64,000 nucleotides of DNA, taken from Azolla caroliniana. Its lineage: Eukaryota; Plantae; Polypodiophyta. The notes beneath the pieces were generated by a model. The model saw nothing but the letters and a program-made list of their open reading frames with translations. It was not told the origin of the DNA and did not search any database. Made by a program: the position numbers and the translations under genes. Of the stretch, positions 4,651 to 63,630 are shown piece after piece. Each line of letters begins with the position of its first letter. Position 1 is the first letter of the stretch. The DNA lies in the NCBI GenBank assembly GCA_043228905.1, contig JBHGNT010000017.1:13640001-13704000 (forward strand), given 5' to 3'.

Positions 4651-5215
4651 GTTCCTGTTCTTAAACTTTAGGGCAGAGCAATTTAAGGCTGTGGATTGAT
4701 TAGGTTCACACGAAATTTAGGGTTTCTAACCTTCTTATCTCTCCTCTCTTCTTCTTCTTCTTCTTCTATCTGGACAGGAAAAAATTTGGTCTGTTTTCCA
4801 CCCGCTCTGCTCTCTGAGACCATCAATTGGGAAGCCTTTCCTGCTTCCGGAAGAGATTAGGGCTTTTTCTTTTTGTTGTTGTTTACTCCTGCTTAACCGA
4901 CATAGCTAGGGCGTCTTCTTTGCGTCCCAGGAATTTTAGGGTTTCTGCTTCAGAGGAGATTAGGGGGTGTTTCTGCTTCAGAGAAATTTAGACTGCTCTT
5001 TTTTTATTTATTTCAGATTCTTCTGATACACATAAAATCAGTAGCACATCAGATTCTTGAAGGATTCAGGGGTTTTCATCTGCCAAGTAATAGCTGTACA
5101 AATCAGGGTTCCAACCTAGGAAGGAATAAGCAGGAAACCGTTGGACTGTATCTAAAATCCAGAGTTTGCTTGTACGGCTCGTGTCAGAGATCTTGTGTCA
5201 GAGATCGAGAGAGAA

Positions 5216-22540: not shown

Positions 22541-22868
22541 TGTCATAGACTCGAAGCTGTGACCTATAGCACACCCAATACTTAATATGAGATATAAATC
22601 ATTTGGAAACCCTTAAGTTATATGTAAATTGTATATGGTTAATATTGTATAGTCTAGCATATAGAATATTGTAGTGTTTAGTATATTCTAGAAATGTTCT
22701 ATGCTATATTCTAGAGATATTTCTCGGGTATATTCTTGAGATATTCAATCTTAGAACTTGTATAAATATGTGTGTTCACCTAGATTACAATCAGGGTGAA
22801 CAACACAAGTTATGGATTCTTTCAATTAATCAACTCATCCCTTTGATTATCTTTAGACTACCCTATTA

Positions 22869-27934: not shown

Positions 27935-30322
27935 TTCTAAAGTCTCAAGAAGCCAACCCATTGTGGTCGAAGAAACAATTAAATGAATTTCGAAGACGAG
28001 CATTCAAGTTTTTTTTACATGAAGGGCATTTATGGAGGCGTCCAAAAAGGCCAACCGAAAATCCTCTTCGATTCATTTGTAAGGATGACATTAAGAGAAA
28101 ATTAATTAATGAATTCCATGATAGTTTGTGGGTAGGGCATAGAGGCATATGGGCGACATTTATGAAGTTGAAAGAAAAGTATTGGTGGTCACATATGTAT
28201 AAATATGTAACGAAACTTGTGGAAACCTGTGAGGTTTGTTAGAGGTATTCAACCATCATCAATGCCTTATAAATGGATGGTCGATCTAGTGACAATGCCA
28301 CTTGGGGAAGGTCAAATGCGATACTTAGTACTAGCAAGAGAAGACCTTACAAACCAAGTAGAAGGAAGACCACTACGACAAAAAACAACTAGAGCTGTAT
28401 GTAAATTTTTGTTAGAAGACGTAATATGTCGTTACGGGTGTGTTGGTAAAATAATTGCAGATAGAGGAGAACTTGACTCTGATGAAGCTAGAGAATTCTT
28501 CAGCCGAATAGGGGTCAAATTATCACTTACAACTGCGTATAATCCAAAAGCCAATGGAAAGATTGAAAGAGGAAATAGCCCAATAGTTAAGGCGATCGTG
28601 AAAAGCTGTAAAGATAAAATAAGAGATTGGCCACGCATGCTACCTTATGCAATATGGGCGGATCGAACAACGCATAGTTCGGTAACAGGATACATGGCAG
28701 TTGAATTAATACTTGGCCAAAAGTGCATCATGCCGATATAAGAATCAATTATGTCATGGATATCTATTCCATGGAGAGAGGAGGTGAGTAGAGAAGAATT
28801 GCTTGCTTTGCGAATTCAACAATTAGAGCGTCGACCTGAAGATATAGAATTAGCAGCCCAACGATTGAAGGAGGCTCGACTAAAGAATAAAATTCATTTT
28901 GATCAAACTCACAGAATTCAGCCAAAGAAAATAGAAGAAGGGGATTGGGTACTCGTGTATGATAGCAATTTAGATAATAAACATAGCATCGTCCGCAAGT
29001 TTGCTGAAAGATGGTTTGGGCCTTACATAGTGGAAAAAGTATATGATAACTTTACCTATAACCTTAGTGAATTGGATGGGACACTAATCCTAAATGTGGT
29101 AGCAGGAAAGAGTATAAAAGTATTTAAGAAAAGGCTCGAGCTTGAACCTCCACTAATAGATCAACATGAAGAAGAAAGATAGTGGCACATGTCGAAGGAC
29201 GTGCAAGTCTAGAGGGGGTGGATGTCGTGAAGTATGAAAGCTTCACATCAAAAGTCTACAATAAGATAAATACATAACTAAAATAAAAAGAATCTTGTTA
29301 GTGTTTTATATAATATTATACATTATATAGGTGAATAAAGTAAAACCCTACATTATGAGGACAAGAGAGGACTTGAACTAATAACCTTCACCTTATGAGC
29401 CTCACATGTTACCAATTAGCAAACATTCATGATATATAAACTATATAAATATTATAGTACATTATATACGGCGGCTATAGAAAGAAAAAGAATTGTATTA
29501 CATGCGCTAGAGAGGACTCAAACCCACAACCTCAATATTATAGTACATTATATACGAAGACTATAGAAAGAAAAAGAATTGTATTACATGCACTATAGAG
29601 GACTCAAACCCACAACCTCAACTTTGAAAGCCTCAATCACTACCACTTAGTCAATACTCACAACATGGCAAAAGCCTACGTGTTGTATTATTTGAACTTG
29701 CATTAAATAGTGTCAACATTGAAATGTATTACATGTGCACCATATATCACACATGCAAGAGCCTATTTGCATGTGCGCCAGATGTACCACATGCAAGATT
29801 ATCCCTTTGCTATAAAAGGAGAAGGGGATGTAGTCATAAAGATACCAAGAAATAAGATTGAATCAAATTATATTGGATCAAGAGAGAATTATAATAGATC
29901 ATAATAGACAAAGGGGGAGAGAGAGGTATCTTCAAAAGACTAGAGGAGAACTAGCTTGGCGGTTGTGGTCCTCAACTCGCAACGGAAGGGCGGTGAGTCT
30001 TATCCTCGTCAAAAGATCCTTGAAGGGAAGATTATGGTTTACTATCAATGAAGGGAAGAGCGGCTACTTTGTGAGACGAAAATCGAAGGTCCAACGACGC
30101 TCGCAGCCATTTTGTAACTCTTTCATGATAATGATTATAAATTTCCTACATTTTCTCAAATATCATTTTATATCTTATCTTGCCATATCTCATATTTCTT
30201 AAAAATCCTACCTTGCCATATCCTATTGATGTCTATTCACTTCATATATACTCTTTCGTCTCTTCCGTCCATAATCCCAGTGATTCCTTCCTCACTTTCA
30301 CGTTATCTTTGTCTGTGCAACA
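27935..30322 (+). mobile_element. Old Gypsy family E 3' end (decayed integrase, PPT, 3' LTR 29223-30322), left-arm copy
   Basis: LVLAREDLTNQVEGR, IIADRGE, WFGPY; PPT AGAGGGGGTGGA followed by TGTCGTG...GCAACA. Confidence 0.88.
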
Positions 30323-30493
30323 TCCTTTGGTGTCTTGGCATCCCGAATGTAGCTCAAGAACTGATCGCTCACACAGGATGCAAGGTAGTATAGAACTCTG
30401 CTTGCCGCTTGTTCCCAAGTCAGGAAATCTCTGTGTGTAGATTCGGGTGCTGTGTCGTTAGCTCCATCGACATAACTCCGGTAGCCGTGCCCG
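30323..30493 (-). mobile_element. Short Copia (family F-like) gag fragment hosting the E and D insertions (mirror 49722-49892 +)
   Basis: GHGYRSYVDGANDTAPESTHRDFLTWEQAASRVLYYLASCVSDQFLSYIRDAKTPK, homologous to the gag at 11081. Confidence 0.75.
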
Positions 30494-36200: not shown

Positions 36201-36745
36201 CCGATGTTGACTCACATACTTCCTTCATAGCTTGAATCGCATCGATCTTTGTTGGTGACGGTCTTCGGCCGTAGGGTCCACATAGATGTCCGACCACCAA
36301 TATTTCTTCTTGCCCGAATGCCGATTTCTCCCCGGAAAGTGTTAGGTGCACATCTTCTAGCTTTCGCAACACTTTCTCGCAATCATGAATATGGTCGACC
36401 ACGAACTTTCGGCATCCCCGATCATCCATAGTCTCATCTTTTTCTTCCACCGCGCATCCTTTCATCGGAATGTCATCTAGAAACGGCATCGTTATCTCCG
36501 GAATGCAATCTCGAAGCACCTTGTTCATCGCGTTCATCATATGTGCAACCGAGTTTGTCGCTCCTTGTGGTAGTGTGCACATTCGAACTAGTCCTATCGG
36601 TGTCCGCATGGTAGTGATGTCTCGGCTCTCCACGGCTAGTTGGAATTGGTCATACCCCGAGTATAGGTCCCCGATGGAGTATATCGCACGTCCGGCAAAA
36701 GCTTCCGCGAATTCGTCCACTATCGGATCGACTCCCGAGTTCCGG
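33232..36745 (-). mobile_element. Gypsy family A 3' part: RT-RNase H-integrase (34030-36745), PPT and 3' LTR 33232-34042
   Basis: DLYSGYDQ, LPQGATNS, PFLDDI, TVDTSPTG, HH-CC and DDE motifs in an open frame; 5' part displaced by element B. Confidence 0.96.
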
Positions 36746-37571
36746 TGTCGTAGTGGAGGTTGCACACTATGTGGAAATTATATTTTTGTCCCTCCGGATA
36801 GAGAATGGAGTGCTCGGTGAGAACCGGAAGAAAACAGCATACCGGCAAGGAGGAAAACGGCATACCGGCAAGGAGGAAAAACGGCATACCGGCAAGGAAG
36901 AAAACGGCATACCGGCAAGGAAGAGCCGGATAAAGAGACATAAATGTAAAAGAAAAAGGAAATAGTCACTACTGCGCAGGGCGTGATTCGAACTCTACAC
37001 CTCCACGTTGACAAACCCCAACCTTACCATTACATTAACTTATCTTAAGTGTTTTAAATATAGATTTAATACGTATAAGACCTTTATTTATGCATACCTT
37101 TATTAAAAGGTAAATCGTGTATTTTTTATATGAAAAAGACGAGACACTAAAAAATAACTCATGCACATCTAGCGTGCATGAGCCCTATACTTAGGGAATA
37201 AAAAAGAATCACATGCACATTTAGTGGACATGAACACTTTTTATAAAAAAAAAACAGGAAGCCATGCTTAGCTCTCCCTTCCTTATATAAGGAGGAGAGA
37301 AATATGTAAAGGGTTGTTGATTATTTGGATTAAGTATTAATCAATACAAAAATTATTCGTGGGATTCACGATTTATACGTCTACTTCTCTCTTAACACCC
37401 TAAGTACCAATTAATATAGTATACTCGTGTGATTCACGAGTTTCTTATCTTTCTCTTTGCTATTTACTCATAATTAATCTCTATCTCACGAACTTCTTTC
37501 TCCTAGTCCAAGACCTCTGTGGTCCCCACCCGACTCACGCAACGATCCGGAGCCGAAAGGCACGACACAGT

Positions 37572-37589
37572 TGGTGAACCCGACGTGAA
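37572..37589 (+). promoter_or_regulatory. Primer binding site complementary to tRNA-Trp 3' end (mirror 42565-42582)
   Basis: TGGTGAACCCGACGTGAA is the reverse complement of TTCACGTCGGGTTCACCA, the plant cytosolic tRNA-Trp 3' end as recalled; 4-nt spacer after the LTR. Confidence 0.85.
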
Positions 37590-40283
37590 GACGGGTGGCA
37601 AGGAGATGGAGGCTCAACAAGCTAACAATATGATGGCGATGTTCGAACGGATGCTTCAAGAACAACGCACGATGTCGGAGATTTCGGCATCAGTAGAGCG
37701 GCTCGTGCAACGCAACGGGCAATTTAATGGTAAGGATGTGTCGCGACATTTGCAGGACTACAAGGCGGAGATGCTCCGGTGCCGGGCTTCGGAAGGACTG
37801 CAAGTGACATCCTTTAACCGGGTGGCGACCGACGGGCTTCAAGGGAGTATCCACGGGTTGCAACAACAAAATCCGATGTGGGAAGCATTCGAAGAGGCGT
37901 TAAAGACCACGTTTGCCATCGAGGACTCCTCCAAGGCAACGCGGAGGGGATTCGAGGATTGGGTGGAAACGTCAGGTAAGGGGCTGAAGGTCCTCGAAGT
38001 GTTTTCGACATTCGAAAGTCGGTTCGGGAGGTTGTCCGCGAGAGATCAAACTATTCTTGCACCGGACAAAGTCATCATGTTTTTGCGAGCTGTGGACGTC
38101 CGGGACCGGAAAGATCTCGGAGTGCTTCTTGAGGACACGACCACCGAAAGCGGCCTCACCGAAACATGGGAAAGCGTGCGGGATATCGTCGCGCGGTACA
38201 CGAAGAGGGGGCAATGGCTTGCCAACGAAGAAAAGAGGGTTTCGGAACCGATTCCGAAACCGAGAACGGGACTGGAAGACCATCAACCAAGGGCTCGGGA
38301 GATTACGGCCGAGAAGGGAGTCGACGCGTCTACGGTGGAGCAGCTGCTGAAGGAGATGGAGAATATAAAGATCGCGATGGTGAAGAAGTCGGATGACCGT
38401 CCCACAAGCTCCAAATATACGGATCGACGGTGCATATGGTGCGATAGCGCCGAACACGATCGGAGGGATTGCGACGACCATAAGGAGGCGCTACGACGGG
38501 ATCTCATCTACTACGAGGGAAACCGGATTCATTCGATGGACTCTCGGAAGCCACTCCGACCGAACTTCCGGAAAGGCGGCATGAAGAAGGTGCTCGAGGA
38601 GGAGTTAGCGGCAAGAAGCAACTATGCGACAACCGCGGGAATATGTGTCGGGGAGTCAACGGGAGCGAAGGCGTCTTTCTGGCCGGAGGTGCTAGGAAAC
38701 ACCGAGAAAACCGACTCCAACGATATCCGAAACACCGCGGAAGGCGTCCGGGAAGCTACGGGATGGGAGTGCCCCGTCGACAAGAATAGCATATACGCCC
38801 TGTGTCAATTACATGAGGTGTATGTGGACGAGAAACGACGGCGCACGGAGGATGCGGCCGGACCATCGAAGATACCGGAAAGCTGGAACTCCGGAGGTAA
38901 GGGAAAAGAAAAGGCGACTAAGAACAACAAACCGACTTGAAAAGAGTGTTCGAGGAAAGAATCTTGGATAGCCGGGTCGATTTTTCGCTGCGGGAACTAC
39001 TCGGAATAGCGAAGAAGGAGTTTTACGATCTTCTCGTGGATCTTGTGAAAAGGAAGAGACAAAGTACGGAGGGAAAATGCTCCAAGGGTGAATGCAAATA
39101 CCGTTTCAATGAACGACACCGAAGTGGAAGGCGAAATTCCGAACTCCCACTATACAAGGCCACACTGGGCACGTGCGACTACGGAGACTCCGGTCCGAAT
39201 CGGCAACATCAAAGAACCCGTGCTAGCATTGATTGATCACGGATCGGAGATCAACTTGATGTCCAAGGAGTTCTACCGAAAGGGGAAGTGGCCTATAAAC
39301 ACCAACCATGGATGGAAGATTCGGGCAGCCACGAAAACGACAGAAGACCTATTTGCGGCTTGTCCGGATGTGACGGTAAAGATCGGGGATGTAGAAATTG
39401 ACCAAAATTTCTTTGTGCAGGATGAGGTTTCACATTCTGTCATCCTTGGCCAATCCTTTATCACGGCTTCACGGATGGAGACGAAGGTGCTCGATAGTGG
39501 TGCGGCTTTTGCGCGAATTCGGAGCCAAAATGGAGGGAAATCCGTCCAATTCCTAACGGTGCCGGCAAATCACGAAAGGAACAAGAGGGAACTCTTGTCC
39601 CAAGTGAGAATGGATTTTTAAAGCGGACTGTTGCGGAGTGGGGAAGTGATAGTCCGAGAAGCCCTGATACCCCACACAGAAGAAAACTCTCGGAGCAAAA
39701 CAAGTACGAATCGGGCCGGATGGGGCATCTACGTACACGGCCGTAACCGGAGGAATGAAGAAACAATACCGACAAGTGGAGGATAAGTTACGGTCGGCAT
39801 CAATAATAAAAGAAGACGAAGAAATCGTGGGAGTAATCGAGGAAGTGTTCTATGGGAATACACTACAACGGCTTGAAGAGCTTGCGGAAGATAAAAGCCA
39901 AGGGGAACCGGGTAGTCCCGGTGGAATCGGTCGAGATGTACGAGATCGTTGCGAAAATGGGGCCGGATGCGCTCCGCAAAGAAGAAGCAATGGTAAGTAC
40001 GAAATACAGACCGTGGAGAAGAAGGTGAAACCGGCCGCGGGACCACTACCCGCCGATAGCGAACAAAAGAAGAAAGAAGTCTCGGGAGATCCGACACTTC
40101 GGAAGTCCGTGGATATCGGACATGCCTTCACAGATGAGACCCGGAAGAAACTTCGGATCGGTGGAGGTGGGTTCCTCTTACAAGAAGAAGAAAAACGGTT
40201 TCGAGAGATGTTGGAGCAACATGGCAAAGCATTCGCGTTCACATCGAGGGAGATCGGATGCATTGATCCAAAGATAGTGGAGC

Positions 40284-40383
40284 NNNNNNNNNNNNNNNNN
40301 NNNNNNNNNNNNNNNNNNNNNNNNNNNNNNNNNNNNNNNNNNNNNNNNNNNNNNNNNNNNNNNNNNNNNNNNNNNNNNNNNNN
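40284..40383. other. Assembly gap (100 N) within the RT of element B
   Basis: Run of N; both flanks are plus-strand pol of the same family. Confidence 0.99.
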
Positions 40384-40626: not shown

Positions 40627-43408
40627 GCACCACTATCGAGCACCTTCGTCTCCATCCGTGAAGCCGTGATAAAGGATTGGCCGAGGATGACAGAATGTGA
40701 AACCTCATCCTGCACAAAGAAATTTTGGTCAATTTCTACATCCCCGATCTTTACCGTCACATCCGGACAAGCCGCAAATAGGTCTTCTGTCGTTTTCGTG
40801 GCTGCCCGAATCTTCCATCCATGGTTGGTGTTTATAGGCCACTTCCCCTTTCGGTAGAACTCCTTGGACATCAAGTTGATCTCCGATCCGTGATCAATCA
40901 ATGCTAGCACGGGTTCTTTGATGTTGCCGATTCGGACCGGAGTCTCCGTAGTCGCACGTGCCCAGTGTGGCCTTGTATAGTGGGAGTTCGGAATTTCGCC
41001 TTCCACTTCGGTGTCGTTCATTGAAACGGTATTTGCATTCACCCTTGGAGCATTTTCCTCCGTACTTTGTCTCTTCCTTTTCACAAGATCCACGAGAAGA
41101 TCGTAAAACTCCTTCTTCGCTATTCCGAGTAGTTCCCGCAGCGAAAAATCGACCCGGCTATCCAAGATTCTTTCCTCGAACACTCTTTTCAAGTCGGTTT
41201 GTTGTTCTATGTCCGAGGCGAGCTTGAATGCCGGAGTCGCCTTTTCTTTTCCCTTACCTCCGGAGTTCCAGCTTTCCGGTATCTTCGATGGTCCGGCCGC
41301 ATCCTCCGTGCGCCGTCGTTTCTCGTCCACATACACCTCATGTAATTGACACAGGGCGTATATGCTATTCTTGTCGACGGGGCACTCCCATCCCGTAGCT
41401 TCCCGGACGCCTTCCGCGGTGTTTCGGATATCGTTGGAGTCGGTTTTCTCGGTGTTTCCTAGCACCTCCGGCCAGAAAGACGCCTTCGCTCCCGTTGACT
41501 CCCCGACACATATTCCCGCGGTTGTCGCATAGTTGCTTCTTGCCGCTAACTCCTCCTCGAGCACCTTCTTCATGCCGCCTTTCCGGAAGTTCGGTCGGAG
41601 TGGCTTCCGAGAGTCCATCGAATGAATCCGGTTTCCCTCGTAGTAGATGAGATCCCGTCGTAGCGCCTCCTTATGGTCGTCGCAATCCCTCTGATCGTGT
41701 TCGGCGCTATCGCACCATATGCACCGTCGATCCGTATATTTGGAGCTTGTGGGACGGTCATCCGACTTCTTCACCATCGCGATCTTTATATTCTCCATCT
41801 CCTTCAGCAGCTGCTCCACCGTAGACGCGTCGACTCCCTTCTCGGCCGTAATCTCCCGAGCCCTTGGTTGATGGTCTTCCAGTCCCGTTCTCGGTTTCGG
41901 AATCGGTTCCGAAACCCTCTTTTCTTCGTTGGCAAGCCATTGCCCCCTCTTCGTGTACCGCGCGACGATATCCCGCACGCTTTCCCATGTTTCGGTGAGG
42001 CCGCTTTCGGTGGTCGTGTCCTCAAGAAGCACTCCGAGATCTTTCCGGTCCCGGACGTCCACAGCTCGCAAAAACATGATGACTTTGTCCGGTGCAAGAA
42101 TAGTTTGATCTCTCGCGGACAACCTCCCGAACCGACTTTCGAATGTCGAAAACACTTCGAGGACCTTCAGCCCCTTACCTGACGTTTCCACCCAATCCTC
42201 GAATCCCCTCCGCGTTGCCTTGGAGGAGTCCTCGATGGCAAACGTGGTCTTTAACGCCTCTTCGAATGCTTCCCACATCGGATTTTGTTGTTGCAACCCG
42301 TGGATACTCCCTTGAAGCCCGTCGGTCGCCACCCGGTTAAAGGATGTCACTTGCAGTCCTTCCGAAGCCCGGCACCGGAGCATCTCCGCCTTGTAGTCCT
42401 GCAAATATCGCGACACATCCTTACCATTAAATTGCCCGTTGCGTTGCACAAGCCGCTCTACTGATGCCGAAATCTCCGACATCGTGCGTTGTTCTTGAAG
42501 CATCCGTTCGAACATCGCCATCATATTGTTAGCTTGTTGAGCCTCCATCTCCTTGCCACCCGTCTTCACGTCGGGTTCACCAACTGTGTCGTGCCTTTCG
42601 GCTCCGGATCGTTGCGTGAGTCGGGTGGGGACCACAGAGGTCTTGGACTAGGAGAAAGAAGTCCGTGAGATAGAGATTAATTATGAGTAAATAGCAAAGA
42701 GAAAGATAAGAAACTCGTGAATCACACGAGTATACTATATTAATTGGTACTTAGGGTGTTAAGAGAGAAGTAGACGTATAAATCGTGAATCCCACGAATA
42801 ATTTTTGTATTGATTAATACTTAATCCAAATAATCAACAACCCTTTACATATTTCTCTCCTCCTTATATAAGGAAGGAAGAGCTAAGCATGGCTTCCTGT
42901 TTTTTTTTTATAAAAAGTGTTCATGTCCACTAAATGTGCATGTGATGCTTTTTTATTCCCTAAGTATAGGGCTCATGCACGCTAGATGTGCATGAGTTAT
43001 TTTTTAGTGTCTCGTCTTTTTCATATAAAAAATACACGATTTACCTTTTAATAAAGGTATGCATAAATAAAGGTCTTATACGTATTAAATCTATATTTAA
43101 AACACTTAAGATAAGTTAATGTAATGGTAAGGTTGGGGTTTGTCAACGTGGAGGTGTAGAGTTCGAATCACGCCCTGCGCAGTAGTGACTATTTCCTTTT
43201 TCTTTTACATTTATGTCTCTTTATCCGGCTCTTCCTTGCCGGTATGCCGTTTTCTTCCTTGCCGGTATGCCGTTTTTCCTCCTTGCCGGTATGCCGTTTT
43301 CCTCCTTGCCGGTATGCCGTTTTCTTCCGGTTCTCACCGAGCACTCCATTCTCTATCCGGAGGGACAAAAATATAATTTCCACATAGTGTGCAACCTCCA
43401 CTACGACA
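40627..43408 (-). mobile_element. Gypsy B mirror copy: LTR 42587-43408, PBS, open gag-protease truncated at the fold-back junction
   Basis: ORF 40572-42635; its last residues derive from antisense RT. Confidence 0.94.
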
Positions 43409-46400
43409 CCGGAACTCGGGAGTCGATCCGATAGTGGACGAATTCGCGGAAGCTTTTGCCGGACGTGCGATATACTCCATCGGGGACCTATACTCGGGGT
43501 ATGACCAATTCCAACTAGCCGTGGAGAGCCGAGACATCACTACCATGCGGACACCGATAGGACTAGTTCGAATGTGCACACTACCACAAGGAGCGACAAA
43601 CTCGGTTGCACATATGATGAACGCGATGAACAAGGTGCTTCGAGATTGCATTCCGGAGATAACGATGCCGTTTCTAGATGACATTCCGATGAAAGGATGC
43701 GCGGTGGAAGAAAAAGATGAGACTATGGATGATCGGGGATGCCGAAAGTTCGTGGTCGACCATATTCATGATTGCGAGAAAGTGTTGCGAAAGCTAGAAG
43801 ATGTGCACCTAACACTTTCCGGGGAGAAATCGGCATTCGGGCAAGAAGAAATATTGGTGGTCGGACATCTATGTGGACCCTACGGCCGAAGACCGTCACC
43901 AACAAAGATCGATGCGATTCAAGCTATGAAGGAAGTATGTGAGTCAACATCGGAAGTCCGAAGGTTTCTGGGTGCGTGTGCATTCTATCACATATGGATT
44001 CCGCACTATGCACATATAGCGGACCCGCTCTATCACTTGTTGCGGAAAGGTAAGAAATTCGAGTGGAAACCGGAACACACTAAAGCCATGAGGAAGCTCA
44101 AGAAGACACTATGGAGGGCGGAATCACTTAAGAAGCCAAGCTACGAGCGGCCAATCATAGTAACGGTTGATACAAGTCCAACCGGTATCGGGTGGGTCAT
44201 CAATCAAGCCGACTCGGATGGTTCGCGGTATCCGATCCGATTTGGAGCAAAGGTCCTCAACGAAAGGCAACGCGGATATGCACAAGTCAAAAGAGAATTG
44301 TGGGGAGTCGTGTCGGCGATAAAATCGGATCGGGATTATTTGATCGGAGCTGAAGTGGTGATCGAGACGGATTGTCTTCCGATACTCGGGATGATGCGGT
44401 GTTGTACGATACCGGATGTGGCTATGCTAAGGTGGATTGCATATGTCAAGTCACTTAATCCGGAGGTTCGACACATCTCGGGGAAGGACAACGCGGTAGC
44501 GGACATGTTATCGAGGGCGCGGTTTGAAGACGACATAACCGAATCAGATAATGAAGAAGTTTCCGAAGACTACTTCACGTCAGAACACATATGCCGAGTG
44601 AACGTGATCCGAGAATTCCGGGAAGAAGAATACGAGGGGGAAACCTTGATGATCGGGAAGATGCTACAAGAGGTCGAGGATTCAACCAATGATAAAGAAA
44701 GGAGAGCCGAGATCCGAAGGAAGAAGAGGCAAGTCCAAAAGTTCTTCTTGGAAAACGGTTTAATATGGAGGACGCCGAAAAGACCGGATGGGATACCACT
44801 TCGAGTAGTCGGGACGAAAGAGCAACGAAACCGGATAATGTCCGAGTTCCACGAATCCGATTGGGCTGGACATCGAGGAACATGGGCAACTTTTGTGAAA
44901 ATCAAGCAAAGATATTGGTGGAAGAACATGTATAAAGATGTCGCGGAGTTCACAGAAAGCTGCGAGAAATGTCAAGTCTACTCCGGGGTCCGACACCGAG
45001 ATGAGCTGCATCCGACATTCTCACCGACAATCAACTTCAAGTGGATGGTCGACATTGTAGCTATGCCGACCGGGATTGGACAAAAGAAATACTTGGTGTT
45101 AGCTCGAGAAGATCTCACAAACCAAGTTGAAGGTCGAGCGCTTCGGAGGAAAACGTGTGCCGCGGTGTGCCAATTTCTTTTGGAAGAAGTGTTTTGTAGG
45201 TACGGCTGCGTAGGACAAGTGATTGCGGACCGGGGAGAACTCGACTCGGACAAAGCTAGGGGATTCTTCGCCAAACATGGAGTTCGGTTAACGTTGACAA
45301 CGGCCTACAATCCGGAGGCCAACGGGAAGATCGAACGAGGACATAGTCCGATCGTGAAAGCACTTGCGAAGGCATGCGACGGAAGGGTGAAGGATTGGCC
45401 ACAAATGCTTCCGTATGCACTATGGGCGGATCGGACGACGCATAGCTCCGTGACCGGTTACATGCCGGCAGAACTCATGACCGGACAAGCACCGGTAATG
45501 CCAACGGAAACCGCAATCGCGACATGGACAATACTACCGTGGAAGGAAGAGATGAGCCGGGAAGAACTACTAGCGGTCCGGATACGACACCTGGAGGGAA
45601 GACCGAAAGATGTAGCGGAAGCGTCACGCCGACAACAAGAAGCACGGTTCCGGAACAAAAGCCGGTTCGACACAAAGCACCGACTACGACCGAGGAGGAT
45701 TGAAGAAGGAGATTGGGTGATCGTCTATGATAGTAGCTTGGACCATCAACATACAACGATGCGGAAATTCGCGAAAAGGTGGTTCGGGCCGTACGAGGTT
45801 TGGAAGGTCTTCGACAACGGGACGTACCGACTGTCCGAGTTGGATGGAACAATACTACGAGTGCCTATAGCCGGGAAACGGGTGAAGATTTTCAAGAAGC
45901 GGACCGACGACAAACCTTATGTGATCCAAGTCGAGGCCGACAACGAGGAGCAATCGGACGAAGACCACAATGATGCGGGAAGCGAAGAAAGTGGATTACA
46001 ACTCATAGTCGACATAAGGGGAGAATCGGAGGAAGCTTCGGATGAAGACGGATACGAAGAATCAAGAACTTCGGCACATACCGGAGGATGTGCGGGTTTG
46101 GAGGGGGCGAGTGTCGTAGTGTAGGTTGCACACTATGTGGAAATTATATTTTTGTCCCTCCGGATAGAGAATGGGGTGCTCGGTGAGAACCGGAAGAAAA
46201 CGGCATACCGGCAAGGAGGAAAACGGCATACCGGCAAGGAGGAAAAACGGCATACCGGCAAGGAGGAAAACGGCATACCGGCAAGGAAGAAAACGGCATA
46301 CCGGCAAGGAAGAGCCGGATAAAGAGACATAAATGTAAAAAGAAAGGAAATACTCACTACTGCACAAGGCGTGATTCGAACTCTGCACCTCCACGTTGAC

Positions 46401-46969
46401 AAACCCCAACCTTACCATTACATTAAATTATCTTAAGTGTTTTAAATATAGATTTAATATGTATAAGACCTTTATTTATGCATACCTTTATTAAAAGGTA
46501 AATCGTGTATTTCTTTAATATATGAAAAAGAAAAAACACGAGACACTAAAAATAACTCATGCACATCTAGCGTGCATGAGCCCTATACTTAGGAAATAAA
46601 ATAAAATAAAAAGCATCACATGCACATTTAGTGTGCATGAACATATGAGAAAAAGCATGTAGCTATGCTTAGTCTCTCCCATCACTATATAAGGATGGGG
46701 AGCACATTGTAGTTGTGGTTGATTATTTGGATTAAGTATTAATCAATATAAAAATTATTCGTGGGATTCACGATTTATACATCTACTTCTCTCTTAACAC
46801 CCTAAGTACCAATTAATATAGTATACTCGTGTGATTCACGAGTTTCTTGTCTTTCTCTTTGCTATTTACTCATAATTAATCTCTATCTCACGAACTTCTT
46901 TCTCCTAGTCCAAGACCTCTGTGGTTCCCACCCGACTCACGCAACGATCCGAAGCCGAAAGGCACGACA
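43409..46969 (+). mobile_element. Gypsy A mirror copy: RT-RNase H-integrase to 46124, 3' LTR 46112-46969
   Basis: Open pol; LTR has 5 copies of the 23-nt repeat versus 3 in the left arm. Confidence 0.96.
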
Positions 46970-49500
46970 ACGTCGGATGCCGCGTTGTCGGCAGAATTTG
47001 ACGAATTCTTCGGATTTGAACTCTCCCCCATTGTCGGTCCGAAAGCATTTCAGTTTTCGGCCGGTTTGATTTTCTACCATAGCGAGCCAATCGGAGAAGA
47101 TCGAGAAGACACGATCTTTGGTGCGAATTGGATAAGCCCACACCTTTCGAGTCGAATCGTCAATAAAACTGACGAAGTAAGAGGCACCGCCAAGAGACTG
47201 ATGCGGCATTGGGCCACAGACGTCCGAGTGGACTAAGTCGAGAGGTCTTGTTTCTCTTGGTGCTGATGTCGGGTGTGATGCGGCTGCTTGTTTGCCATAC
47301 TGGCAATGCTCACAGAATTGATGGTCCGAGAAGGAGAGTTTGGGGATGTACCCGGCTCTAGATAGGTGCGTGATGCCGGCCTTGCTGAGGTGTCCTAATC
47401 TTCTGTGCCATAGTGATGACACAGGAATATCCACCAAAAACAGGTTACCCTCTCTGAGCGTAACATGTAACGGATACAGTGAGTGTATCTTGGGTCCTCT
47501 AGCAAGCAGGAGGTTCCCCCTGTGGAGTGTCCACCCTCCCGAAGAAAAACCGGCACGAATGCCGTCTTCATCTAGTTGTCCGACTGAGATCAATGGCCTT
47601 GAGAGCTCGGGTACATGTCGGACATTGTGAAGTACAAGTGTAGAGCCACCTGCAAGGTTGAGCTCTACTGTGCCGATTCCAATGATGTCACAGTGTTGCG
47701 AGTTGCCGACTCGAACTGAGTCGGAGTGACGGATCGTATATTGCCGAAATTGGGATCGATGAGGAGTCACGTGAAATGACGCGCCCGAATCTAAGAGCCA
47801 TGTGCTCGATTCTTCAGTCGTGAGCAGAACTTCTGATCCGACTGGATTTTCGATTGATAGTATATTCGGGTCGTTTGGTAGCACATCAGCTGAGAAGCTG
47901 ACGTAATTGATCTCCTCATGCCGGCCACTCTTCTTGTCTGATTTCTGAGACTTGTTCTTGAGTGCGCGGCAGTCGGCTTTGATGTGTCCGGGTTTCTTGC
48001 AGTAGTTGCAGATTCGGTTATCCCGTGACTGGCTCCGTCTTCGCTGATTGTTCGGCGGTCGTGAGGAATCTCTTCCTCGTATGTTCGATCAGTCTGTCGA
48101 ACCTTGTACTACATAAGCGTCGTCTGTTGAGTCTTTGGCGAAAGACTTTCTCCGAGCTGCTTCGGTCAGGATTGCGCTCGTGACTTCGGAGTATTTGACA
48201 GCCGTGGTTGACGCGTTGCACACGGTTGTGACGAAAGTTTCCCATGATGAGGGAAGGCTACTCATGAGTATCATTGCTCTGAGTTCATCCTCGATTGCCG
48301 TCCCCTGAGATGAGATTTGGGAGCTTATGCTTTCGTACTCATTGAGATGTGCTTGAACCGAATCGGATTCTTTCATCCGCAAGTTGTAGAGACGCCGGAT
48401 CAGAAACATCTTCGTTGCAGCGACCTTCTTTTCGTAGGTGTCCGACAGTGTTTTCCACAGTTCGAATGCTGTCGTACACGATTGCACCGTAAAGTATACC
48501 GATTCCGATAGGTGCATCCGAATCGTGGCGCGGACGATTCTGTCCAGCTTCTGCCACTCAATTGGTTTGTATCCTTCTGGAGGTTCTTCATTTTCGATGG
48601 GATCGATTTGCCCCTTGACTATGAGATAGTCCTGCATTTGCTCCTTCCAGAAGTTGAAGTTCGATCCATCGAACTTTCGTAGACTCATTTCTGACGAGCC
48701 GGATGTTGATGCCATCAAATTTGGTTTCGGTTGACGAAGCTCGGTTCGGAGTTGACTACGAACCTTGTTGGAGTGCAGCCGGTTGGCTCACCCGATATCG
48801 TTCTAGTCGGATTTGAACCCGAGTCGGTTCGGCTTCGGATATATGTATTGTTGAACTTGCTCGAATTGACTCCGGTAACTTGAGGGACAGAACCGACTGG
48901 TCTTCCCGAATGTTGCCGAGTCGGAGTGAGCCCGGTTCGCTTCCGATTATATATGCCAGATGCCGATTATTGAAACCGATTGTCTGGACCGATTCTGCTT
49001 CGGGTGACTGCAGCGACGAGAGAGACGGATCCAACTGATCCTCCCGAATGTCGATCAGCCGAATGAAGCACGAATTGGGGTTGTTGTCTTGAGACTGATC
49101 TGCACCGAGTGGTTACAATGAGCGGCGAGCAGAGTTTGATGACCTCTTCGGATGCCGTTTAACCGAGTGGAGCACGATCGTGTCAATGTTGCACAAGGGG
49201 ATTTCACCTCGAGCGGTTACGATCACAAGGAACAGAGTACAACCGGCTGGTTTACTCCAAGTGAAGATGATCTAACGCGATGAGATGCAAGCCTCGTTTT
49301 TCTTCTTCTTCTCTCTTCTTCGAATGACGCAGGAAACCGAATGTTGTGCAGGCTGAGACGACGGCCGACAGCGGATTGAAGGACCGAATACTGTGCAGGC
49401 TCTGATACCAGATGTTGGAGACAATGTCGTCTATGCGGAAGATCAAGAAGCATTCGATTCTGTTCTGTACCTGCGTATGACAGTCTCTCGTTCGTTGCAC

Positions 49501-49534
<34 letters not shown>

Positions 49535-49721
49535 GCACAAAAGACTTTCTATTCAATAGAAACAATAATACAACACCCAACCTTACAAAAGGGTTACAAG
49601 GTCACTATATATAGTGACCGACTTAGGGCAACTACCCTTTATGCTAATTACACAAATGCCCCAAAGATGGGCTATACAAAGGGATAGTGTGAATACGTCC
49701 ATTATACACTTGTATTCGACA
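46970..49721 (-). mobile_element. Copia D mirror copy (LTR 49413-49721), gag with premature stop at 48089-48091
   Basis: Mirror of 30494-33231; CGA>TGA change splits the ORF. Confidence 0.95.
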
Positions 49722-49892
49722 CGGGCACGGCTACCGGAGTTATGTCGATGGAGCTAACGACACAGCACCCGAATCTACACACAGAGATTTCCTGACTTGG
49801 GAACAAGCGGCAAGCAGAGTTCTATACTACCTTGCATCCTGTGTGAGCGATCAGTTCTTGAGCTACATTCGGGATGCCAAGACACCAAAGGA

Positions 49893-52800
49893 TGTTGCAC
49901 AGACAAAGATAACGTGAAAGTGAGGAAGGAATCACTGGGATTATGGACGGAAGAGACGAAAGAGTATATATGAAGTGAATAGACATCAATAGGATATGGC
50001 AAGGTAGGATTTTTAAGAAATATGAGATATGGCAAGATAAGATATAAAATGATATTTGAGAAAATGTAGGAAATTTATAATCATTATCATGAAAGAGTTA
50101 CAAAATGGCTGCGAGCGTCGTTGGACCTTCGATTTTCGTCTCACAAAGTAGCCGCTCTTCCCTTCATTGATAGTAAACCATAATCTTCCCTTCAAGGATC
50201 TTTTGACGAGGATAAGACTCACCGCCCTTCCGTTGCGAGTTGAGGACCACAACCGCCAAGCTAGTTCTCCTCTAGTCTTTTGAAGATACCTCTCTCTCCC
50301 CCTTTGTCTATTATGATCTATTATAATTCTCTCTTGATCCAATATAATTTGATTCAATCTTATTTCTTGGTATCTTTATGACTACATCCCCTTCTCCTTT
50401 TATAGCAAAGGGATAATCTTGCATGTGGTACATCTGGCGCACATGCAAATAGGCTCTTGCATGTGTGATATATGGTGCACATGTAATACATTTCAATGTT
50501 GACACTATTTAATGCAAGTTCAAATAATACAACACGTAGGCTTTTGCCATGTTGTGAGTATTGACTAAGTGGTAGTGATTGAGGCTTTCAAAGTTGAGGT
50601 TGTGGGTTTGAGTCCTCTATAGTGCATGTAATACAATTCTTTTTCTTTCTATAGTCTTCGTATATAATGTACTATAATATTGAGGTTGTGGGTTTGAGTC
50701 CTCTCTAGCGCATGTAATACAATTCTTTTTCTTTCTATAGCCGCCGTATATAATGTACTATAATATTTATATAGTTTATATATCATGAATGTTTGCTAAT
50801 TGGTAACATGTGAGGCTCATAAGGTGAAGGTTATTAGTTCAAGTCCTCTCTTGTCCTCATAATGTAGGGTTTTACTTTATTCACCTATATAATGTATAAT
50901 ATTATATAAAACACTAACAAGATTCTTTTTATTTTAGTTATGTATTTATCTTATTGTAGACTTTTGATGTGAAGCTTTCATACTTCACGACATCCACCCC
51001 CTCTAGACTTGCACGTCCTTCGACATGTGCCACTATCTTTCTTCTTCATGTTGATCTATTAGTGGAGGTTCAAGCTCGAGCCTTTTCTTAAATACTTTTA
51101 TACTCTTTCCTGCTACCACATTTAGGATTAGTGTCCCATCCAATTCACTAAGGTTATAGGTAAAGTTATCATATACTTTTTCCACTATGTAAGGCCCAAA
51201 CCATCTTTCAGCAAACTTGCGGACGATGCTATGTTTATTATCTAAATTGCTATCATACACGAGTACCCAATCCCCTTCTTCTATTTTCTTTGGCTGAATT
51301 CTGTGAGTTTGATCAAAATGAATTTTATTCTTTAGTCGAGCCTCCTTCAATCGTTGGGCTGCTAATTCTATATCTTCAGGTCGACGCTCTAATTGTTGAA
51401 TTCGCAAAGCAAGCAATTCTTCTCTACTCACCTCCTCTCTCCATGGAATAGATATCCATGACATAATTGATTCTTATATCGGCATGATGCACTTTTGGCC
51501 AAGTATTAATTCAACTGCCATGTATCCTGTTACCGAACTATGCGTTGTTCGATCCGCCCATATTGCATAAGGTAGCATGCGTGGCCAATCTCTTATTTTA
51601 TCTTTACAGCTTTTCACGATCGCCTTAACTATTGGGCTATTTCCTCTTTCAATCTTTCCATTGGCTTTTGGATTATACGCAGTTGTAAGTGATAATTTGA
51701 CCCCTATTCGGCTGAAGAATTCTCTAGCTTCATCAGAGTCAAGTTCTCCTCTATCTGCAATTATTTTACCAACACACCCGTAACGACATATTACGTCTTC
51801 TAACAAAAATTTACATACAGCTCTAGTTGTTTTTTGTCGTAGTGGTCTTCCTTCTACTTGGTTTGTAAGGTCTTCTCTTGCTAGTACTAAGTATCGCATT
51901 TGACCTTCCCCAAGTGGCATTGTCACTAGATCGACCATCCATTTATAAGGCATTGATGATGGTTGAATACCTCTAACAAACCTCACAGGTTTCCACAAGT
52001 TTCGTTACATATTTATACATATGTGACCACCAATACTTTTCTTTCAACTTCATAAATGTCGCCCATATGCCTCTATGCCCTACCCACAAACTATCATGGA
52101 ATTCATTAATTAATTTTCTCTTAATGTCATCCTTACAAATGAATCGAAGAGGATTTTCGGTTGGCCTTTTTGGACGCCTCCATAAATGCCCTTCATGTAA
52201 AAAAAACTTGAATGCTCGTCTTCGAAATTCATTTAATTGTTTCTTCGACCACAATGGGTTGGCTTCTTGAGACTTTAGAAAATTTCCTATTTCTAACCAT
52301 TGACCTTCATACTCTGTGTCTTCGACCATTATGCTTACATTAAACTCATCATGAGGCTTAATAGATACTTGATGGCTTGTAGTTGCCCAATTCTTATCTT
52401 CAGCTTGCATCACCCTTTCATTTATGAACCTTGCTCTTGACAATATATCTGTGACTGGGTTCTCTTTGCCCTTTATATGCCATAATTATGGGTTCATGGT
52501 TCTGATGTATGCAATCCACCGAAGCATTGCAATATCTGGTGTGGTGCAACTTGCTATCATTCCAATGAGTGGCAAACAATCTATTTCAACCACTACATCT
52601 GCTCCAATCAAGTAATCTCTATCTGTTTTTAATGCAGTAAGCAAACCCCACAATTCTCGTTTAACTTGTGCATAATTTCTTTGTCTTTCACTTAATATCT
52701 TTGCTCCAAATATGATAGCATATCGATGTTGGTCTTCATCTTCTTGGTTGATAACCCAACCGATCCCAATTGGGCTAGTAACAATTGTCACTATAATTGG

Positions 52801-55665
52801 GCTTTCACCTTTGTAGTCTGGTTGACAAAGAACTGGAGCTTTCAATAATGCTTCTTTCAATTGTTGAACAACTTGTGTATGTTCATCAGTCCAAATAAAC
52901 TTCCTCCCTTTTCTTAAAAGTTGGTAGAGAGGATCTGATACATGTGCAAAGTGTGGTAACCAAATATGATAAAACACACATGCACCTAAAAATCTTCTCA
53001 CCTCTGTTACCGATTCGCAAACCTCCTTCATATTTTGTATTGCATTAATTTTGATCGGTGATGGCTTCCTCCCATACCAGCCACACATATGACCAACTAT
53101 CAAAACTTCGTTTTGCCCAAAGCTTGACTTTGTTCCTGATAGTGTCAAATGTACCTGCTCAAGCTTATTTAAAATACTTTCACAATCATTAATGTGATCC
53201 ATCACAAACTATCTGCAACCATTTCCAACCATAGTCTCATCATTCTCTCTTTCTAAGCATCCTTTAATAGGAATATCATCTAAAAATGGCATAGTTACCT
53301 TTGGAATGTATTCATGTAGAACTTTGTTCATTGCATTCATCATATGAGCAACCGAATTCGTCGCTCCTTGAGGTAGAGTGCACATTCGAACCAACCCAAT
53401 TGGTTGTATCCTAAATATAGGTCTCCCACAGAGTAAATCGCTCTCCTAGCAAAAGCTTCTTTAAATTCATCAACAATCGGCCCGATTCCTGCATTTCGGA
53501 TTGTGACTTTGTTGACTGGTTGTAGATCTTGAATGAATCTTAGAGAACCATCTTTCTTTGGAATTGTGAACTATCTATTGGAGTATGGTGCATTTGAAGG
53601 CTCTAAAATCTTCATCTTGACTTTATCCTTCAGCAACACCAACAATTGAGGTAATCGAGCTCTCAGTATTGCAATAGGTTTAAAATTCCAAGGAATATGA
53701 GGGATAGTAAATATTACCATTGGCATCACCACCTTTGGATCTACACAACCAATCTCCTCAACTTTGAATGCGAACGCTTTCCTAACATGCCTAAAGATCA
53801 TTTCTTTGAAAGTCGCGATCTCTGATTGCAGAAGAAATATTTATTGTCTCCGAAGTGAAGTGATGTCTGATCTTCTCTATTGTTCGAAGCATAAGCTTGG
53901 TTGTTGTTGCTTCCATCTTCTCTTCACTACCAATAGGTAATGGTACTGCAACAGGTTTGACCTTTTTATCTATTGTTTTGTATTTTGTATTACATAAACT
54001 TTCTACTTCTTCATATTTACAATTATACCTATCAATCTCATAATACATATCAATTGAGTTTACATGTATCTTTCGAACACTCTCATCATCTTCTTTCAAA
54101 TACATTTCTAACTCTTCTATAGTATTTGCAAAAGAAATTTCTTCCATAACACTTTCAATGTGCTCTTCCATTTCAAGTACTCCATTATCTTTCAATGCCT
54201 GTTGAAACAAATTAGCATTCTTTTTCAAGTTCCTCTTGCATTCATACATCCTAGTCACACATATAGCACCACTTTTAGAAACATGAAATGACTTATTCAT
54301 ATGTTGTAATGCCCTACGTGAGGGTCTTTTAATAATGAGACTATTGCAACCCTCATTTGCAACAGTACTAGTCAAAAAGCTAATCATCAAAATCATAACA
54401 TTCCTATGGTATCGAATGATCACAAAGTTCTTGCTTATTCCTCTCATGATTTGGGCAAACTGTCATAAATTGTACAGTTCCTTGTCCATCTTGGCTTCGA
54501 ATCTTCGCATAGGGAGAACCATTGTCAAGGACTTTGATCTCCATCCGTACTGTTGTGATGTATGGTTGCCTCAAGATTATTGGATAGGTAGATCCTTCCT
54601 GCACAAAGAAATGTTGATCCACCTCTATATTACCAATAGTAACCTTTACATTTGGGCATGCACCAAATAAATCTTCAATGACTGATGTGGCCGCTTTTAC
54701 GTGGCAACAAGGTTGAGTATCAATTGGCCATCTACCTTTCCTGTAAAAATGAGCACTCATTATATTTATTTCAAAACCATGATCAATAAGTGCCATCACC
54801 GGGTCTGGAACATTTCCAATCTTCACATGATGCGAAGTAGTGGCACTTGCCCAACATTTGCGAGAGTAGTGGCTTCTTGTCTCTGTTGAACTTATCATTG
54901 AGGTTGATGCATGTTGAGAGTCAACAATGTTATTGTTCGACTCGTTGCTTACCACTTCATATGCCACCTTCGGATTTGTCTCTTTAACCTGCTCATTTAC
55001 TTGCTTCTTTCTTCGCACAATATCAATTATTTCATCATGAAATTCCTTTATTGCAATTCTTAACACTTCTCTTAATGTAAATTCTACTCGACTGTCTAGT
55101 ATTCTTGTTTCTAAAATTCTCTTTAAATCTATATCCTTTTCAATATCAGGCATTAATTTGAATGATGGACCAAATATACCTTTTTCAACTTTTGTGTCCA
55201 TCTCTTTTCTTTTGCTTTCTCTTGTTTCATGCTTTTCTGTTGACCCAATCTCATCATCCAACCTTTTCCTTTTTTCTTCCACTATCACCTCATGCTCTTT
55301 GTGTTCTACCATCTGAGCATAGACTGTCATAGCATCTATTGGAACATCCCATCCAGTGTTTTTGCTTACAAAATCTCCAGCAACACGAAGGTCTTCCATC
55401 TTCCGATTTTGCTTTTGTGCAGAACTTACAACCTTCTCCCAGAATGATGATCGGTATGGTGTGTCATCAAGACGCATTCCTACTGTTTCCAATTAGTACA
55501 TTGTAGAAGCCTTCTTTGCTTCAACTTCTTCAAACATAACCTTAACACCACCATCACCAAAGTTCTTTGTAAGTGGACTTCTAGTTTCAGTTAAGTAAAT
55601 GCTACCATTTTTCCAGTAGACCAAGTCTTGATTTTCCATGTCTTTATATTCCGTACAATCACGTA
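49893..55665 (-). mobile_element. Old Gypsy family E: 3' LTR 49893-50992, decayed gag C-terminus, protease, RT, RNase H, integrase
   Basis: ALIDHGFEIN, LPQGATNSVAH, PFLDDIPIKG, LAREDLTNQVEG; many stops; homologous to A/B but AT-rich. Confidence 0.93.
50555..50857 (+). other. Array of tRNA-shaped modules in E LTR: 50555-50626, partial ~50680-50712, 50786-50857 (mirror 29358-29660 -)
   Basis: A boxes TGACTAAGTGG and TTGCTAATTGG; loops CTTTCAA and CTCATAA; AGGTT; B boxes GTTTGAGTC and GTTCAAGTC; each full unit 72 nt. Confidence 0.65.
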
Positions 55666-61334: not shown

Positions 61335-62272
61335 TAGATAGCGTGACCCATCATTTCCGTTGAATTGCCTGTTTCTTTGCACAAGCCGCTCTATTGCCGA
61401 CTTGATCTCTGACATCGCGTGTTGTTCTTGCAGTATCCAGTTGAACATCAGCATCATCATGTTCATCGCCACTTGTTGATTCTCCATCTCCTTGCCACCC
61501 ACTTTCACGCCGAGTATACCAAATGTGTCGTGCCTTTTGGCGCCGGATCGTTGCATGAGTCGGGTGGGAACCGTTGGGGTTTTGGACTAGGAGGAGGAAG
61601 AATTTGAGACGATTCTAGTTATTAATAGATTATAAGAAAGAGAGATAGAAAACTTGTGAGTCCCACAAGTATAATGTATTTTATTAATGAATATTTAGGT
61701 AAGAATATGAATTTAGATTGAAAGAGAAGGATATAGAAACCTCGTGAATCACATCAGTATAGTTTATTAATCGGTATTTAGAATCATATTCAATTTCCAA
61801 AGATTCCACCCCCCCTATTTCATCTTTCTCCCATCCTTATATAGTGATGGGAGAGGCTTAGCAATTCATGCTTTTTCGATGGACTCCAGGCTTTTGCTAT
61901 CTATAGACTATATACTTTCTCTAACATGATTCTTCTAAAAGTGATCATGCTTTTTCTAACCTCATGCGTTTGTTTTATAAACTATAGTGTTCATGCACAC
62001 TAGATGTGCATGTGTAGCTTTTTTCTATCATGTGTTTTTCTTCTAACTAAAGCTTTTCCTAGAAAATATGCATGAAGTAACCTTTCTATGTGGGATATTT
62101 TTTAACGTTCATAATGTGTTAGATAATGGCAAGGTTCCAAATTATTAACATTGAGGTACAAGGTTTGAATCTTGCCCTATGCATGTAAAATATTTTTCTT
62201 CTATTTCCGTATATTTTATTGAGTCGGGTACTCCATACGTTTTTCACGTAGTGTACGAAATACACTACGACA
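61335..62272 (-). mobile_element. Older A/B-related Gypsy 5' end: LTR 61526-62272, decayed tRNA-Trp PBS, gag start
   Basis: Same LTR termini; TGGTATACTCGGCGTGAA; ILQEQHAMSEIKSAIERLVQRNRQFNG; tRNA-like module at 62112-62183. Confidence 0.88.
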
Positions 62273-63630
62273 ACGTGAGTCCAACTCATCGATATTGCTC
62301 TCCGAATTTGACTCTCTGATCCGGCTCTGGCTTACTCAGCCGATACGGATCTGGTTGAGCTTGTCCGCTCAACAACGTCGTATTCTAGCATCTTCTTCTT
62401 TCCCTTCACTTTACACATGAACCGTCTCCTTGGTTTGTTGCGCGGGGATAACACGACCGAGTCTCCATTACTCACTAGTTCTTCATCCGGCTGGTCATTC
62501 TGACTTAGTCTTTCATTCAACCCACTTAGTCGGAATGAAATCAGACTCTTTTTTAGAGTGCCGAACTCTTCTTCCTCTTTTGCCCAGATCATTTTGGGCT
62601 CATTGGCCTCATCCTAAGTAATCGTGTGTTCGGTGTGGTCAAGTGTTGGAGTTGGAGTCGGTAAGGAGTACCATGATGCTAACTAGTCAAATTCGACATC
62701 TCAATGTACTCAAACTTCTTTGGTGCGAGGATTATAACACTTATACCCCTTCTGTTCGTGTGAGTAGTTGACTAGAATACACTTCTCAAACTTCGGGTCC
62801 AGCTTTTTCCGCTTCTCATCCGGTACATGCACATAGCCAATGCTACCAAATACCCTAAGGTGTCTTAAGTTTGGCTTCCGCCTGAAATACAACTCTATGC
62901 TGACACCTTCTCCCCGATCCGATTTTGGATGTAAACGGTCGTCCAGATTGCCTCGGCCCAATAGAATTTGGGCATGCTCTTCTCCTCCATCATTGCCCAT
63001 GCCGCTTCCACAATTGGACAATTCTTCCTTTCGGCTACGCCGTTTTATTCCGGCGTATATTTGAAGCTGAATTCTCTCCGAATTCCCTTCTACTGTAAAT
63101 AACAAATGAATTGGCTAGAAAAGTATTATTTTTCGCCATCTGACTGCGAGCACTTTATCTTCTTCTCGATTTCCCTTTCGACGAAACTTTGAAGGTTCCG
63201 AAAATTGTCGAAGACTTCATTCTTCTTTACGATGAGGTAGATCCATGTGTGTTGGCTATAGTCGTTGATGAAGGAGTTCCGACCACTAAATCTTGGCAAG
63301 CCGAATACTACTTGTTTTGACTGCAAATCCAGAAGCCTTTGGTAGTTGACATGACCGTGACCGATCCGCTTGTGCCATAAGTCGATATCCGACTCAACTT
63401 TTTGTCCTTTGGCGAATAGAGTGGTGCCAATGTTATTGGTGTCGAGGATAAACATCCTCTCGTCCCGGCGCCCTTGTGCAATGATCTAACCCTCTTCCTT
63501 GATGAAGCACCCAAGGTGGCTGAATCGAACTTGCATTCCAGCTCATCGATCCGGGTCTTGGCTTATTCAGCCGATCTGGATCAGCTTGTCCGCTCAACAG
63601 CCATTGTAGGAACCTTTTCGCCAACATCAT
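62273..63630 (-). mobile_element. Decayed Copia integrase region
   Basis: LWHKRIGH, KPNLRHLRVFGSIGYVHVPDEKRKKLDPK, GYKCYNP. Confidence 0.88.

Follow-up and report, generated by a model that had tools for sequence, protein, structure and literature searches.

The window analyzed here, a whole stretch of 64,000 nucleotides, is occupied by nested LTR retrotransposons of the copia and gypsy types. A gypsy element of family E lies on its minus strand. The 3' LTR of this element occupies positions 49894..50992, with U3 starting at 50992 behind a polypurine tract (50993..51002, minus strand) and with about 30 nt of the U5 end absent in this copy. A broken RT-RNaseH-integrase (51057..53537, minus strand) is 59-62% identical to the pol of family A and gave no match to a chromodomain. 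A predicted TATA-like Pol II core promoter of the LTR is located at 50397..50405 (minus strand).

Two full tRNA-like units of 72 nt, predicted to be Pol III promoter units, lie on the plus strand of this LTR and are thus antisense in the U3 of the minus-strand element. Unit E1 (50555..50626) consists of an A box (50562-50574), a conserved AGGT (50597-50600) and a B box (50605-50615), and is followed by a run of five T (50640..50644) that may be a Pol III terminator. In unit E2 (50786..50857) the A box is at 50793-50805, the AGGT at 50828-50831 and the B box, with an intact GTTCAA core, at 50836-50846; a run of four T follows at 50870-50873. The initial annotation had described both units, their orientation, the T runs and the stretches TGAGGCT and AGTCCTCT that E1 and E2 have in common, and all of these were recovered. 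Using a matrix of A and B boxes built from host tRNA genes only, E1 scored 29.6, whereas the best of 40 shuffles reached 17.1. A third unit, overlooked before, is found in sense orientation in R/U5 (approximately 50204..50270, minus strand; A box 50263-50251). It is downstream of the TATA-like box, which therefore lies between antisense and sense units. In the window copy 5 nt of its B box are deleted, while the GTTCRA core is intact in 14 of the 24 family rows covering the site.

The initial annotation had also counted a 3' half unit. It is indeed present in the sequence from 50680, but is not a trait of the family, being part of an 86-nt tandem duplicate (50680..50765, plus strand) of 50594-50679 that includes a second 3' half of E1. 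This duplication was detected only in the window copy and its inverted duplicate. None of the remaining 26 loci in the alignment has it, and 19 of these extend across the site. The inverted LTR copy (29223..30321, plus strand) is 100% identical and lies inside an 11.6-kb inverted duplication, and it was therefore not treated as independent evidence. The inverted duplication (27935-39503 versus 40627-52280, 99-100% identical) flanks a gap of 100 N (40284-40383), is accompanied by a 2.8-kb direct repeat (25089-27925 and 33228-36064), and represents either a recent palindrome or an assembly artefact. Other repeats of the window are tandem arrays at 21041-23180, with units of 128-149 nt and 54 nt, and a (GA)n/(CT)n inverted microsatellite hairpin at 4486-4668 with sub-threshold Rfam miRNA matches, which are likely due to chance.

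A search for family E in the 523-Mb plant assembly gave 341 candidates, 40 of which were scored, yielding 30 loci. The unit was found within the same LTR at the same place in 27 of 28 distinct E loci, which argues against independent SINE insertions with target site duplications. The usual state of the family is two U3 units, and no SINE-like tail was seen at the E loci. One lone 70-nt copy of E2 (L026:1501-1570) was identified outside any E LTR; it either arose by retroposition of a Pol III transcript or is what a deletion left behind.

Outside the boxes E1 and E2 are 69% identical, compared with 14-49% between unrelated unit types, in agreement with the duplication within family E proposed earlier; both are 71-73% identical to a third relative. 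Related subfamilies display CATA-type loops in one or both units. These loops, together with the 69% non-box identity, indicate that E1 and E2 descend from one ancestor and that the "Glu" loop arose by drift. The loop letters reported before are present (CTTTCAA at 50585-50591 in E1 and CTCATAA at 50816-50822 in E2), but the significance given to Glu-, Met- and Asp-like loops was not supported, as identity between families at the anticodon positions is only 0.32. Drift at the anticodon and the common descent of E1 and E2 rule out that the loops are anticodons of different captured tRNAs. ARAGORN and Rfam called no tRNA at the E units and folding of these units was no better than that of shuffles (z -0.59 to +1.35). 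Together with mostly unpaired stems, these results rule out a folded tRNA or an expressed tRNA gene.

Conservation within the units

Eight unit types (A, C, E1, E2, F1, H, L179 and L184), all from LTRs that had been collected by homology or by their primer site without using the boxes, were compared in an ungapped tRNA register; unit F2 and an H subfamily with a spacing of 44 were left out of these statistics. Between-family identity was 0.86 in the A box, 0.91 in the B box and 0.94 at tRNA positions 44-47. The corresponding values were low in the acceptor (0.42), the anticodon arm (0.40), the anticodon (0.32), the T stem (0.43) and the flanks (0.37-0.39). Since the flanks were not gap-aligned, the stretch between the boxes is the fair comparison, and within it positions 44-47 formed the highest 4-nt window. 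Units were located by the box matrix, which favours the A and B boxes, but positions 44-47 and the fixed spacing are outside the matrix. The A-B spacing was nearly constant (43-44) even in LTRs rich in indels. The conservation picture was the same whether the five most distant types or the full set of 17 was compared; the unit families are related and are therefore not independent samples.

Pairing of the acceptor (0.36) and the anticodon stem (0.43) was close to that of slid controls (0.39 for both). The D stem (0.59 versus 0.44) and the T stem (0.72 versus 0.49) paired somewhat more than the controls, but far less than those of host tRNA-Trp, in which pairing is 1.0. The pattern of conservation between families suggests selection on the boxes and not on a folded tRNA, as the initial annotation had argued, and the units very probably are real promoter boxes maintained by selection. 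In yeast, tauB of TFIIIC is described to touch the DNA just ahead of the B box, and mutating +44 to +47 affects either binding or transcription; the role of the A box is to position TFIIIB, not to bind TFIIIC (PMC11724288). Retention of the A box, the B box and positions 44-47 together fits a DNA-bound complex of TFIIIC and TFIIIB. Because the conserved set matches the contacts of tauB and the requirements of TFIIIB placement, the units may be read as DNA on which TFIIIC and TFIIIB are loaded, rather than as tRNA.

Capture of the primer tRNA-Trp of the elements themselves was considered as the source of the units and rejected: the spacing (43) and the D loop match, but the non-box identity of 16-39% is background, in a comparison that covered part of the host tRNA set. 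A possible common descent of the units of Tcn1-like and Phygy-like elements was weighed by their non-box identity, which was 18-41%.

Distribution among gypsy lineages

Families A, C, E, F, G and J fit Phygy by their termini, NCGN duplication, primer site and domain layout. The A/C-type LTRs have the termini TGTCGT...ACGACA. A 4-bp target duplication with a preference for NCGN was observed in the flanks of A, C and G copies and of several E copies. In families A, C, F, G and J, the primer site agrees with the 3' terminus of tRNA-Trp from the host (no E 5' junction was seen). According to the ORF map, the polyprotein fills most of the internal region, and Pfam did not identify a chromodomain in the A, E, G and J proteins. 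One antisense unit was present in all 30 loci of family A (2,611 candidates) and likewise in all 30 of family C (2,206 candidates). In the window, the family A LTR at 42587-43409 carries a single antisense unit with an intact B box (43110..43181, plus strand), further A/B copies have A boxes starting at 37037 and 46425 (minus), and the family C LTR at 61525-62275 carries a single antisense unit at 62113..62183 (plus strand). By BLASTN at 1e-6 the E LTR had no match to the A or C LTR; retention of the units across deep LTR divergence, as first proposed, was thus borne out.

For sampling without the boxes, 60 LTRs were taken by their tRNA-Trp primer site. On the antisense strand 12 of them beat their own 40 shuffles, ten with a spacing of 43 and a recognisable unit, one of which (L189) is probably a nested A-type piece. 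Another 12 of 60 beat the shuffles on the sense strand, six of these representing the sense unit of family F. About 50 of the 60 loci were without a unit. An RT tree was built from 20 rows, and on it the units occurred in J, E/F, A/C and G and were absent from one clade of eight (bootstrap 100) and from L291; this tree omitted 28 of 43 fetched elements, which had fewer than 290 aligned residues, and its root is weak. The GC content was 0.32-0.42 in unit-bearing LTRs (n=9) and 0.44-0.58 in unit-less LTRs (n=6), as if AT-rich and GC-rich LTRs followed two promoter strategies.

The unit-less clade was also examined for a B box standing alone in U5, and 14 of 50 loci scored at least 10 at 49-60 nt before the LTR end. 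It was not counted, because T55 and A58 vary freely and the site lies within a conserved hairpin-like motif. The unit-less loci L142-L200 of this GC-rich clade share a T-loop-like and hairpin motif 49-62 nt before the U5 end, which may function at the RNA level in priming or packaging.

The units are not always antisense. A sense unit in R/U5 is kept in E, F and J, and sense units in U3 were detected in relatives from other public assemblies. Among 80 such loci related to the A integrase, seven had an antisense LTR unit and six a sense U3 unit, the latter including L330, L344 and L351. The LTR of L330 has only its last 80 nt in common with the window genome. In the integrase tree, from which L405 was dropped and whose root is weak, the sense and antisense forms were sister lineages. 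Within the unit-bearing part of this tree, no clear unit was found in L339, L341, L357 and L363, and the units of L336 and L342 were weak. Scans of viral contigs revealed no relatives.

The exact pattern A box-N30-B box matched the genome 5,243 times, compared with none for the reversed control. Among the first 30 of these matches, 25 were in gypsy LTR families, nine of them in family H, while three resembled host tRNA genes and two were unassigned. Family H is a 5.2-kb element with LTRs of 432 bp, intact gag and pol, a chromodomain (Chromo E 2.7e-14) and a 5-bp target duplication in its flanks, and its pol is only 22-23% identical to Phygy-like pol. No tRNA primer site was identified; the sequence after the LTR is, by eye, complementary to the predicted start of R, which is of the self-priming type. 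These features fit a Tcn1 chromovirus. By the lineage descriptions in PMC6317226, the presence of Phygy- and Tcn1-type elements suggests a seed-free plant as host. H LTRs were fetched by their TATA/R/U5 part (2,371 candidates), and a full antisense unit was present in 28 of 30; the remaining two, from one element, had lost the A box alone. The B box of family H is located about 10 nt from the LTR end. In the Selaginella SM-Tcn1 LTR (PMC2864245 supplement), no such unit was seen by eye.

Some further tRNA-like sequences were noted. A solo LTR with a 5-bp target duplication and Tcn1-like ends (L292:2220-2678) carries an antisense unit that retains a fully paired acceptor-like stem and is possibly a younger capture nearer its source tRNA. 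A small repeat beside (GA)n runs contains two convergent tRNA-like A+B units (window 3650-3889; L099:6686-6917; L092:6420-6890). In L215 and L216 (around position 1500), two tRNA-like units lie outside recognised LTRs; their loop is CCA and their ends are short and inverted.

Possible role of the units near the Pol II promoter

The distance between unit and TATA-like box was 115-390 nt overall, namely about 115 nt in H, 140-390 in E, 190-215 in L330 and L344, and 250-280 in A and C. In E, F and J, units were located on both sides of the TATA box, pointing outward. Judging from their sequences, protein-coding gypsy elements thus appear to maintain under selection a type-2 Pol III promoter at 115-390 nt from the predicted Pol II TATA box.

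The unit can be described as a tRNA-type (type 2) internal promoter reduced to the A box, the B box and positions 44-47. Such units would load TFIIIC and TFIIIB, and the assembled Pol III complex would exclude nucleosomes and spreading silencing from the Pol II promoter, leaving an open, silencing-resistant patch of chromatin near the TATA box of the element. The outward units on both sides of the TATA box in E, F and J would fence the promoter, and a short Pol III RNA, if any, would be a by-product. The units may have originated from captured tRNA-derived repeats that were then duplicated and replaced. With doubt and confidence in roughly equal parts, we read the units as loading TFIIIC/TFIIIB to act as a chromatin barrier or opener near the Pol II promoter. 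The observations behind this reading are the position of the units, the pattern of conservation, the lost tRNA structure, the turnover of number, source and orientation, and the occurrence in two distant gypsy lineages. As the boxes were kept while the tRNA shape decayed, the elements likely borrow the machinery of host tRNA genes against silencing. In fission yeast, a tDNA barrier is reported to need TFIIIC and Pol III and to work independently of orientation (PMC2040200). It is a more tentative proposal, in which our confidence falls somewhat short of our doubt, that minimal promoters of tRNA genes were captured repeatedly by autonomous gypsy elements of seed-free plants, in two lineages, and that these elements fence their Pol II promoter with them, as with an insulator against silencing that travels with the element.

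Several observations speak against a barrier. The CpG of the B box was changed in 8 of 30 family A copies, compared with 13 of 823 at 28 other LTR CpGs, although one other site reached 7/30 and shared descent of the changes is possible. This contrast suggests that the B-box CpG of family A is methylated, and not protected, in many genomic copies. The same change occurred in 3 of 30 H copies, and family E displayed no contrast. C56 is T in window E1, in most E1 copies and also in most C copies, the searches having been seeded with such copies. The D and T stems pair somewhat above the slid controls. Finally, the prevalence of unit-less LTRs among those primed by tRNA-Trp indicates that the lineage thrives without the unit.

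The units could instead be real Pol III genes whose short RNA matters, either as a small-RNA precursor, as in foamy virus LTRs, or as a decoy for factors of silencing or tRNA processing. We regard this as rather unlikely, though the retained A box, needed for TFIIIB and transcription, and the nearly fixed A-B spacing would both be expected of it. A run of four T was found within 30 nt of 8 of 12 Phygy-type unit representatives, compared with 21% of nearby 30-nt windows, and the lone E2 copy could be a retroposed transcript. However, neither RNA sequence nor pairing is conserved outside the boxes, and unit orientation flips. In family H only about 10 nt separate the end of the unit from the edge of the LTR, and the LTR contains no terminator there; no near T run follows the G and sense units.

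It is improbable that the boxes act on cDNA or at integration, by tethering through TFIIIC/TFIIIB to Pol III-rich or open sites or by attracting nested insertions. The position of the H B box near the LTR end and the use of TFIIIB described for Ty3 integrase are in line with this, but units lie anywhere between about 10 and more than 600 nt from the LTR end, while their distance to the TATA box stays within its narrower range, and Phygy-like insertions follow the NCGN target. Transcription of the element itself by Pol III, as in Cassandra and as proposed for Helenus, would account for the conserved sense R/U5 unit of E, F and J and the sense U3 units of L330, L344 and L351; it is very improbable for elements of 5-7 kb with gag-pol and a TATA box, in which the majority of units either have antisense orientation or precede the predicted start, and T runs follow soon after. 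Equally little credence can be given to neutral relics of tRNA-derived SINE insertions, passively inherited and with box matches as a search artefact, since this explanation, in spite of other tRNA-derived small repeats in the genome, the box matrix used to locate the units and the many B boxes hit by CpG decay, is largely refuted by an interior at background beside three short blocks at 0.86-0.94 (one outside the matrix), by preserved spacing in indel-rich LTRs, by the constant place of the unit in the E loci and by the mutable B-box CpG kept in young families.

Relation to known systems

The closest known kin of the units are the non-coding Helenus TRIMs. In Helenus/TRIMp3, tRNA-derived LTR sequence is likewise conserved around boxes A and B only, with no functional tRNA (Kojima 2024, PMC10886601), and an origin by SINE capture was proposed. 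Helenus is non-coding and 311-1263 bp in size (PMC10886601), whereas elements of the type in the window are 5-7 kb with gag and pol ORFs. The Pol III promoter of Helenus was proposed to drive the element, whereas here the TATA box is kept and one to three, mostly antisense, units are present. The same study argues that autonomous partners must use Pol II, followed up only TRIMs below 1 kb, and mentions that "not a few" Repbase LTRs contain tRNA-like pieces (PMC10886601). The unit-bearing gypsy elements fall outside Helenus by size and coding capacity, yet have the same principle. Cassandra TRIMs are similar in carrying a host Pol III promoter in plant LTRs with boxes under selection, but theirs is of the 5S kind (type 1) and takes the place of Pol II, the element being non-coding (10.1101/2023.07.14.548913). 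In foamy viruses, Pol III units are also situated in the LTR of a protein-coding retroelement and their product is a hairpin miRNA (PMC7693620, PMC7104284), whereas RNA sequence and structure of the gypsy units are not conserved. The yeast tDNA/TFIIIC barriers (PMC2040200, PMC13578239) resemble the action proposed here, with an assembled Pol III complex working in either orientation, but they are host genes at heterochromatin borders, while the present units are transposon-borne. A 2026 review gives Pol III barriers as not described in plants (PMC13578239).

The available parts of the descriptions of Phygy and Tcn1 (Neumann 2019, PMC6317226) mention no Pol III boxes in the LTRs. No report of such boxes in LTRs of autonomous plant gypsy elements was found in the openly searchable literature; the mere presence of the boxes may already be on record in Repbase or in papers behind subscription. 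Capture of Pol III promoters, so far a matter of very small non-coding TRIMs, is extended to protein-coding retrotransposons that are large and abundant, and in which a captured promoter is unlikely simply to drive the element. The units also represent a natural mutagenesis of a plant type-2 promoter, with the A box, the B box and positions 44-47 kept and the rest free, a pattern in agreement with recent TFIIIC structures. They raise the testable question whether Pol III complexes serve as plant chromatin barriers that are exploited by transposons. If the units do insulate, mobile Pol III barriers would exist here by the thousand, a kind of barrier new to plants, and transposons would have made a counter-defence from host housekeeping machinery.

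With more than 5,000 box pairs intact, the units could sequester TFIIIC and also lead to overestimates of tRNA gene number in such genomes. For some ferns very high numbers of tRNA genes are reported (PMC13578239), which LTR units could inflate. Host tRNA genes were also observed in long tandem arrays of a single isotype, namely Lys, Ile, Arg and Trp (L031-L060 and L201-L206).
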